Shown here: in pieces, positions 3,512-3,590 of the stretch | How the letters are laid out: each line of letters begins with the position of its first letter | Position numbering within the stretch: the first letter of the stretch is position 1 | NCBI GenBank assembly: GCA_019058275.1 | Contig: JAHLVW010000008.1 | Coordinates: forward strand, 1-13,982 | DNA length: 13,982 nt | Reading direction: 5' to 3' | From: Candidatus Heimdallarchaeota archaeon | Lineage (GTDB): Archaea; Asgardarchaeota; Heimdallarchaeia; JABLTI01 | Program-made: the position numbers and the translations under genes | The notes under the pieces: model-generated | Database searches by the model: none | Seen by the model: the letters and a program-made list of their open reading frames with translations, nothing else | Told to the model about the DNA's origin: nothing

Positions 3512-3590
3512 AATAACTGCTGGTCGCGTGAGAAAGGTGTGGTTGTGAACCACTTTCCGCGAATTCAAATCGCGCTGGACCCACCACTTT
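3512..3590 (+). repeat. tRNA-Ile(CAT)-derived 3' half, copy 1, containing a 33-nt BHB intron (3531-3563) at tRNA position 53/54
   Basis: TGC TGGTC GCGTG [intron] TTCAAAT CGCGC TGGACCC ACCA CTTT. Removing 3531-3563 gives a sequence nearly identical to 8314-8352. No D-arm or 5' acceptor strand lies upstream. Confidence 0.85.

Follow-up and report, generated by a model that had tools for sequence, protein, structure and literature searches.

A predicted relaxed bulge-helix-bulge intron in a probable orphan 3′ portion of a Heimdallarchaeia tRNA(CAU) gene

Positions 3516–3586 of the window, by which we mean the whole of the 13,982-nt contig C59, are probably what remains, displaced and without function, of the 3′ part of an intron-bearing tRNA(CAU) gene from an archaeon of the Heimdallarchaeia (Asgard archaea); the remnant carries a genuine HBh′ intron and was most likely orphaned by recombination. 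The 33 nt at 3531–3563 are an archaeal endonuclease-type (bulge-helix-bulge, BHB) intron of the relaxed HBh′ form, for which cleavage is predicted. It is a real intron, belongs to a known kind and is, as an intron, ordinary. The assembly that contains the contig comprises 4.12 Mb in 118 contigs with 32.5% GC. We denote this genome G000 and its relatives by further G numbers; the family comprises 12 genomes.

Anatomy of the intron and its boundaries

The elements of the fragment are given below, with ^ marking a splice bond.

3516–3586, plus strand: 3′ part of a tRNA(CAU)-type gene, tRNA positions 39–76, CCA encoded
3516–3530, plus strand: remnant of the 5′ exon; homology to tRNA(CAU) from about 3517 (about tRNA position 40)
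3516–3520, plus strand: 3′ strand of the anticodon stem, ACTGC (39–43)
3521–3525, plus strand: variable loop, TGGTC (44–48)
3526–3530, plus strand: 5′ strand of the T stem, GCGTG (49–53)
3531–3563, plus strand: 33-nt BHB-type (HBh′) intron at tRNA 53/54, based on motif, homologues, covariation and shuffles
3525–3528, plus strand: exon strand of the 4-bp central helix, CGCG (tRNA 48–51), partner 3558–3561
3529–3531, plus strand: 5′ bulge TG^A, cut predicted 3′ of G3530 (position 53), boundary from the intron-free copies
3532–3557, plus strand: intron helix h′, GAAAG (3532–3536) with CTTTC (3553–3557), around an inner hairpin
Inside 3532–3557, plus strand: inner hairpin, TGGTT (3540–3544) with AACCA (3548–3552), loop GTG
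3558–3561, plus strand: intron strand of the central helix, CGCG, which mimics the 3′ strand of the T stem
3562–3564, plus strand: 3′ splice region AA^T, without a closing exon-side helix (relaxed HBh′ form)
3564–3586, plus strand: 3′ exon, from T loop to encoded CCA
3564–3570, plus strand: T loop, TTCAAAT
3571–3575, plus strand: 3′ strand of the T stem, CGCGC
3576–3582, plus strand: 3′ strand of the acceptor stem, TGGACCC
3583–3586, plus strand: discriminator A3583, then CCA (3584–3586)

The helices, bulges and hairpin that a sequence-only reading of this DNA had proposed were all found where it placed them, correct to the base. The central helix consists of the pairs C3525–G3561, G3526–C3560, C3527–G3559 and G3528–C3558. 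Helices close the 5′ bulge UG^A at either end, and the 3′ site AA^U is open, with the exon helix limited to the single pair G46–C56. This bears out the weak exon-side helix noted in that reading and assigns the motif to the relaxed HBh′ form.

The boundaries of the insert can be read independently of its structure. The junction GCGTG^TTCAAAT occurs without insert at window positions 8322–8333, on contig C58 and in the intact tRNA(CAU) gene of the congener G003, and the boundaries of the fragment intron are therefore unambiguous. Deletion of 3531–3563 recreates precisely this junction, as had been claimed, followed by CGCGC, TGGACCC, A and CCA, so that a regular T arm, the 3′ strand of the acceptor stem and the CCA end are obtained. 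One genome thus offers versions of the same tRNA 3′ part with and without the intron. The splice bonds are fixed independently of the motif, and the BHB rule predicts both of them exactly. With the boundaries set by the copies that lack the intron, and requiring all four central pairs and an adjoining intron helix of at least 4 bp, the motif in exact register was found in 0.04% of 200,000 shuffles of the insert.

Folding energy does not favour the motif. For the isolated 75-nt RNA the free-energy minimum, which retains T-stem pairing, lies at −19.8 kcal/mol vs −11.7 kcal/mol for the BHB fold, and the folding z-score is only −0.28. The preference of about 8 kcal/mol for another fold speaks against our reading of the locus. 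As the minimum is another fold and the z-score is this small, thermodynamics alone does not single out the BHB motif, and the case for the intron therefore rests on boundaries, homologues and covariation.

Homologous introns, covariation and the host endonuclease

A fuzzy search of the genome revealed a full-length tRNA-Ile(GAU) gene (C61 40341–40200, minus strand) interrupted by 33 nt at the same bond. Inserts of the same family were present in Ile-GAU of G004 and G011, in Lys-UUU of G001, G005, G008 and G010, in Ala-UGC of G006 (a gene with a G3–U70 pair), in an intact two-intron tRNA(CAU) on contig C258 of G011 and in a decayed full-length tRNA(CAU) on C78 of this genome. Contig C21 of G010 contains another orphan 3′ half, whose intron of this family is partly decayed. 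The sequence-only reading had named a lack of homologous tRNA genes with an insertion at 53/54 among the results that would count against it; such genes exist in this genome (Ile-GAU) as well as in its relatives (Lys-UUU, Ala-UGC and the intact tRNA(CAU)), and that reading is thus supported. One intron family is thus common to four isoacceptors inside a single Heimdallarchaeia family.

Once the insert was removed in silico from five homologous loci, ARAGORN called them as Ile(gat), Lys(ttt) (two loci), Ala(tgc) and Met(cat). Prior to removal, four of the five were uncalled and one was miscalled as a tRNA with a stop anticodon. The junction motif CCGCGAATTCRAATC was present in 8 of the 12 family genomes and in none of the 71 other genomes of the class. 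A stricter pattern, in which CCGCGAATTCRAATC was extended by KCG and combined with GTGAG 20–32 nt upstream, yielded seven Asgard stretches and one bacterial match (Parvularculaceae) in 185,579 species genomes; the latter we take to be a chance match, since about one is expected.

At least two further introns of this genome, in tRNA-Cys(GCA) on C1 and tRNA-Tyr(GUA) on C101, lie at 53/54 and share the architecture, and they are not homologous to the one studied here. Position 53/54 is therefore a common intron site in this genome. The site, which the sequence-only reading called non-canonical, is not unusual in this lineage, as at least three full-length tRNA genes of the genome use it.

Several side observations concern these multi-intron genes. 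The tRNA-Ile(GAU) gene on C61 has a second intron of 31 nt in the anticodon loop, which forms a BHB only if a C–A mismatch in the central helix is allowed; in the free-energy minimum of this gene, the 5′ exon pairs instead with a decoy of the anticodon stem located in the intron. An orphan 3′ fragment resembling the tRNA-Tyr(GUA) gene of C101 is seen at about 5140–5212 on C60. It apparently keeps the end of a 53/54 intron (...CTTGAA^TTCGAATC) and would be the second intron-bearing orphan of this genome. The Rfam tRNA model found only 33 tRNAs above cut-off in G000, and ARAGORN found 25 without and 38 with intron search; multi-intron genes, among them Ile-GAU, Cys-GCA and Tyr-GUA, were missed by both.

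Covariation was assessed by counting helix pairs at anchored positions across the intron copies. The central helix is present in all homologues, and in the tRNA(CAU) genes of G011 (C258) and of C78 it changes from CGCG/CGCG to CGUG/CACG along with the T stem. The intron helix, 5 bp in the window, is held in every full-length gene with 3–4 bp and compensatory changes: its fourth pair is A–U, G–C, U–A, U–G or C–G depending on the copy, and pairs 2 and 3 are U–A and C–G in the Ile gene of G011. Covariation extends to the inner hairpin, which is built around a GG/CC core. If the register is shifted by two bases, as RNAfold preferred for some single sequences, the pairing breaks in several copies, and the covarying register puts the 3-nt bulges at the predicted cut sites.

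The sequence-only reading held that such a relaxed motif needs an endonuclease of broad specificity, and it left the host enzyme to be classified. Two genes of the EndA family were found in the genome, encoding proteins of 191 aa (C96) and 196 aa (C11). The C96 protein is similar to the catalytic EndA subunits from Aeropyrum pernix, Sulfolobus tokodaii and Pyrobaculum aerophilum with E-values of 1e-42 to 5e-34 (1e-42 for A. pernix). It aligns without gaps over the crenarchaeal specificity loop (CSL/L1), keeps the lysine of this loop (RKPKG) and has the Tyr/His/Lys triad. In the C11 protein, Val replaces the catalytic His and the specificity loop is absent. Judged by sequence, the pair matches the (αβ)2 type of broad specificity, with a CSL/L1 loop in the catalytic subunit, and would be able to cut relaxed motifs, which fits the expectation. 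Asgard EndA has been reported as an (αβ)2 enzyme with an L1 loop, linked to a broad substrate range (PMC5829648).

Splicing of the family can be pictured as follows. Exon nucleotides 48–51 would pair with the terminal CGCG of the intron; a 3-nt bulge would present the bond between position 53 and the intron, with the intron helix stacked on its other side, and the 3′ bond (AA^U54) would follow directly after the central helix. For the full-length pre-tRNAs of this genome family, the two-subunit EndA is predicted to cut both bonds, after which ligation would restore the T arm.

Orphan status and the tRNA(CAU) fragment arrays

Neither ARAGORN nor Rfam at its gathering threshold called a tRNA at the fragment in the window. 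Its cloverleaf is incomplete: homology starts at about position 40, and the 5′ strand of the acceptor stem, the D arm and a full anticodon arm are absent. The sequence-only reading had described the 5′ half as missing. Consistent with this, a search of the assembly (92.8% complete) for an acceptor strand complementary to that of the fragment (GGGTCCA or GGGCCCA plus D arm) turned up the decayed full-length copies and Ile-GAU but no 5′ half. The parent tRNA(CAU), which the sequence-only reading named tRNA-Ile(CAT), may have been either Ile2 or elongator Met.

Related features of this genome are as follows.

Window 3666–3953, plus strand: 3′ remnant of a gene whose counterparts in G007 and on C78 immediately precede tRNA(CAU)
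Window 5272–5349, plus strand: decayed full-length tRNA(CAU) without introns, Rfam tRNA score 24.4 bits, below the 29-bit cut-off
Window 8313–8349, plus strand: intron-free copy of the same tRNA 3′ part
Window 9303–9332, plus strand: intron-free 3′ fragment
Window 9815–9848, plus strand: degenerate fifth 3′ fragment, inside the stretch 9305–9834 that aligns to the G003 locus
C78 5181–5320 (L054), minus strand: full-length tRNA(CAU) carrying two introns, one in the D loop and one at 53/54

At permissive E-values, Rfam found only the decayed tRNA at 5272 in the window. This copy lacks the D-loop and 53/54 introns, yet about 50 nt of its 5′ flank are common with the intron-bearing C78 locus, and its 5′ flank is likewise homologous to that of the tRNA(CAU) locus in G007. 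The shared flank identifies it as a paralogue or allele at the DNA level rather than a retro-copy of a mature tRNA. In the C78 gene the anticodon, T and acceptor stems are broken and there is no CCA. Both full-length copies are thus decayed, and no third, intact tRNA(CAU) of this type was found in the assembly. A working tRNA(CAU) gene, if any, is missing from the assembly, which weighs against our reading.

Co-oriented 3′ pieces of tRNA(CAU) occur on C58, at 3516 (the intron-bearing one), in the 3′ part of 5272–5349 (from 5327), and at 8313, 9303 and 9815. Positions 1–141 of the window and of C58 are 100% identical in reverse orientation (an assembler k-mer overlap), and because of these identical starts the two contigs are probably adjacent. 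C58 carries an intron-free tRNA(CAU) 3′ fragment and a Met-type 3′ fragment, and it probably extends the array upstream of the window. The stretch that follows the copy at 9303 (9305–9834) aligns over 538 nt, at 87% identity, with the sequence flanking the intact G003 tRNA(CAU), and as this downstream flank is orthologous to that of the G003 gene, the 9303 copy represents the original gene end. The G003 locus has a second match to the 3′ fragment at L056 2139–2188. The gene remnant at 3666–3953 follows the orphan, which points to a duplicated or rearranged locus; its translated end resembles the C-terminus of a serine hydrolase by eye only, and a Pfam scan of the remnant gave no match.

Similar multi-copy arrays of 3′ fragments were seen in G003, G004, G005 and G007. 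They are located on C89 of G007 (5897–22544), C72 of G003, C110 of G004 and C20 and C93 of G005, with up to six co-oriented fragments spaced by 1–5 kb. In the window, 3955–5206 encodes an S41 peptidase in two overlapping frames (3955–5034 and 4847–5206), which looks frameshifted, and the ORF at 10035–10502, a luciferase-like monooxygenase covering profile positions 28–173 of 314, is probably truncated.

Site-specific integration of archaeal viruses and plasmids leaves duplications of tRNA 3′ ends, with the att sites located in tRNA genes. The arrays resemble such duplications in that co-oriented 3′ repeats, running from anticodon stem to CCA, bracket blocks of unrelated genes, and in that one copy is still followed by the original downstream flank: in the window, the direct repeats at 5327, 8313, 9303 and 9815 bracket DNA, and the original flank follows a distal copy. 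They differ in spacings down to about 0.5–1 kb and in having one intron-bearing copy. Furthermore, Pfam scans found no integrase among the ORFs of the window, and matches to the tyrosine integrase family (PF00589) in five genomes of the genus all lie elsewhere, with none on C58, C59 or the arrays of the relatives. A single simple integration is also at odds with the position of the fragment, which lies upstream, not downstream, of the decayed full-length copy. The hotspot is real, and as no integrase was found, the recombination mechanism that orphaned the fragment is one that we can only infer.

Most likely, then, recombination at the tRNA(CAU) hotspot would have orphaned the fragment and left the co-oriented, mostly intron-free arrays of 3′ fragments in this genome and its congeners. 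The motif may have stayed intact since the fragment is young or has been homogenised against other copies, rather than being spliced for a purpose. The helices of the window intron (5+5 bp) are better preserved than those of the other orphan (C21 of G010), which leaves room for a function.

Intron movement, rival readings and known systems

The intron of the window is 82% identical to the Ile-GAU intron of its own genome, compared with 67–73% to the introns of other CAU-type copies and 58–64% to unrelated 53/54 introns. The two most similar introns are thus found within one genome, in different tRNAs and beside a hotspot of tRNA fragments, which bears on how introns arrive in Asgard tRNA genes. 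The orphan intron of G010 is likewise closest (78%) to the Lys-UUU intron of its own genome, tied with the Lys intron of G005. Where an Ile-GAU orthologue lacks the intron, its T stem differs (GCCGG/CCGGC vs GCGTG/CGCGC), and the rest of these genes, their 37/38 intron included, is about 93% identical. This suggests that T arm and intron may move jointly between tRNA genes.

These observations could be taken to mean that T arm and intron form one module moved by gene conversion or recombination, with the 3′ fragments as donors or acceptors, so that the orphan would be a reservoir copy and not an inert relic. Both nearest-neighbour relationships and the differing T stem agree with this, as does the distribution within one genus, where the intron resides in Ile, Lys or Ala according to species. 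We nevertheless regard it as unlikely: the sequences are short and the differences in identity amount to a few bases, the identities give no direction of transfer, the patchiness could also stem from ancestral presence and repeated loss, and cross-isotype copying is rare in Asgard archaea (1.5% at ≥80% identity; bioRxiv 10.64898/2026.10.13.758758). An extension of this idea, to which we give somewhat less credence again, is that the tRNA(CAU) 3′ fragments serve as a recombination platform that copies the T-arm-plus-intron module into Ile-GAU, Lys-UUU and Ala-UGC, or else that the intron disrupts an attachment site and shields the gene from integration. If the platform did operate, it would show concretely how introns can reach Asgard tRNA genes, a question that the 2026 survey left open. 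The locus also bears on the older idea of introns shielding tRNA genes from integration, and its value is that of a tractable case for intron gain and loss.

Two other readings carry far less weight. Split tRNA genes exist in Nanoarchaeum equitans and Caldivirga maquilingensis, and the fragment might accordingly be the 3′ half of such a gene, transcribed alone and joined in trans to a separate 5′ half. Its 3′ part is intact with an encoded CCA, and a tRNA(CAU) 5′ half that runs through the anticodon loop into unrelated sequence is found on C192 of G007. However, the assembly holds no matching 5′ half besides the decayed full-length copies and Ile-GAU, homology begins within the anticodon stem (about position 40) and not at a loop junction, and several decayed sister fragments lie nearby, which makes a split half very improbable and disfavours it as a candidate. 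Even less credible, indeed close to impossible in our judgement, is that the 33 nt entered a dead tRNA fragment by chance or were duplicated locally, with helices formed by coincidence. The fragment is non-functional and the thermodynamic z-score is not significant, as this would predict, but the inserts at the same bond in full-length genes, which ARAGORN calls only after their removal, the compensatory changes among homologous inserts and the rarity of the motif among shuffles rule it out. The displaced 3′ portion of an intron-bearing tRNA(CAU) gene thus stays the preferred reading.

On C192 of G007 (L057 1542–1580 onward), the sequence after the tRNA(CAU) 5′ half is intron-like. No 3′ exon was found within 250 nt of it; the alternatives are a very long intron, disruption of the gene and a split gene.

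Non-canonical BHB (HBh′) tRNA introns of archaea were reportedly described by Marck and Grosjean in 2003 and by Sugahara et al. in 2008. Such introns accompany (αβ)2 EndA in Thermoproteales, other TACK and Asgard archaea (Kaneta et al., 2018; PMC5829648). The intron of the window resembles them in its 4-bp central helix, its 3-nt bulge with a predicted cut after the second base, the flanking intron helix, a site other than the anticodon loop and the L1/CSL loop of the host enzyme. Unlike them, it resides in a gene fragment without a 5′ half, lacks the outer exon helix and has cut sites that are predicted.

BHB introns in the T arm of Asgard tRNA genes have already been described in a preprint of October 2026 (bioRxiv 10.64898/2026.10.13.758758), according to which several Heimdallarchaeia lineages are intron-poor, cross-isotype intron families and links to mobile elements are rare or absent in Asgard archaea, and the route of intron arrival is open. 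Asgard host, T-arm site and two EndA paralogues are shared with the introns described there, and the four central pairs plus one flanking helix agree with the motif that the preprint terms canonical. In contrast to the picture given there, the present family spans four isoacceptors and occurs in orphans at a recombination hotspot.

In Thermoproteales, introns have been transposed between tRNA genes, as far as this is conveyed by the preprint's citation of Fujishima et al. (2010). In the respects covered by that citation, the present family is similar in that related introns share their position across different tRNAs of a single genome, and it is dissimilar in that the T-stem sequence would travel along and that the identity is about 80% rather than near-complete.
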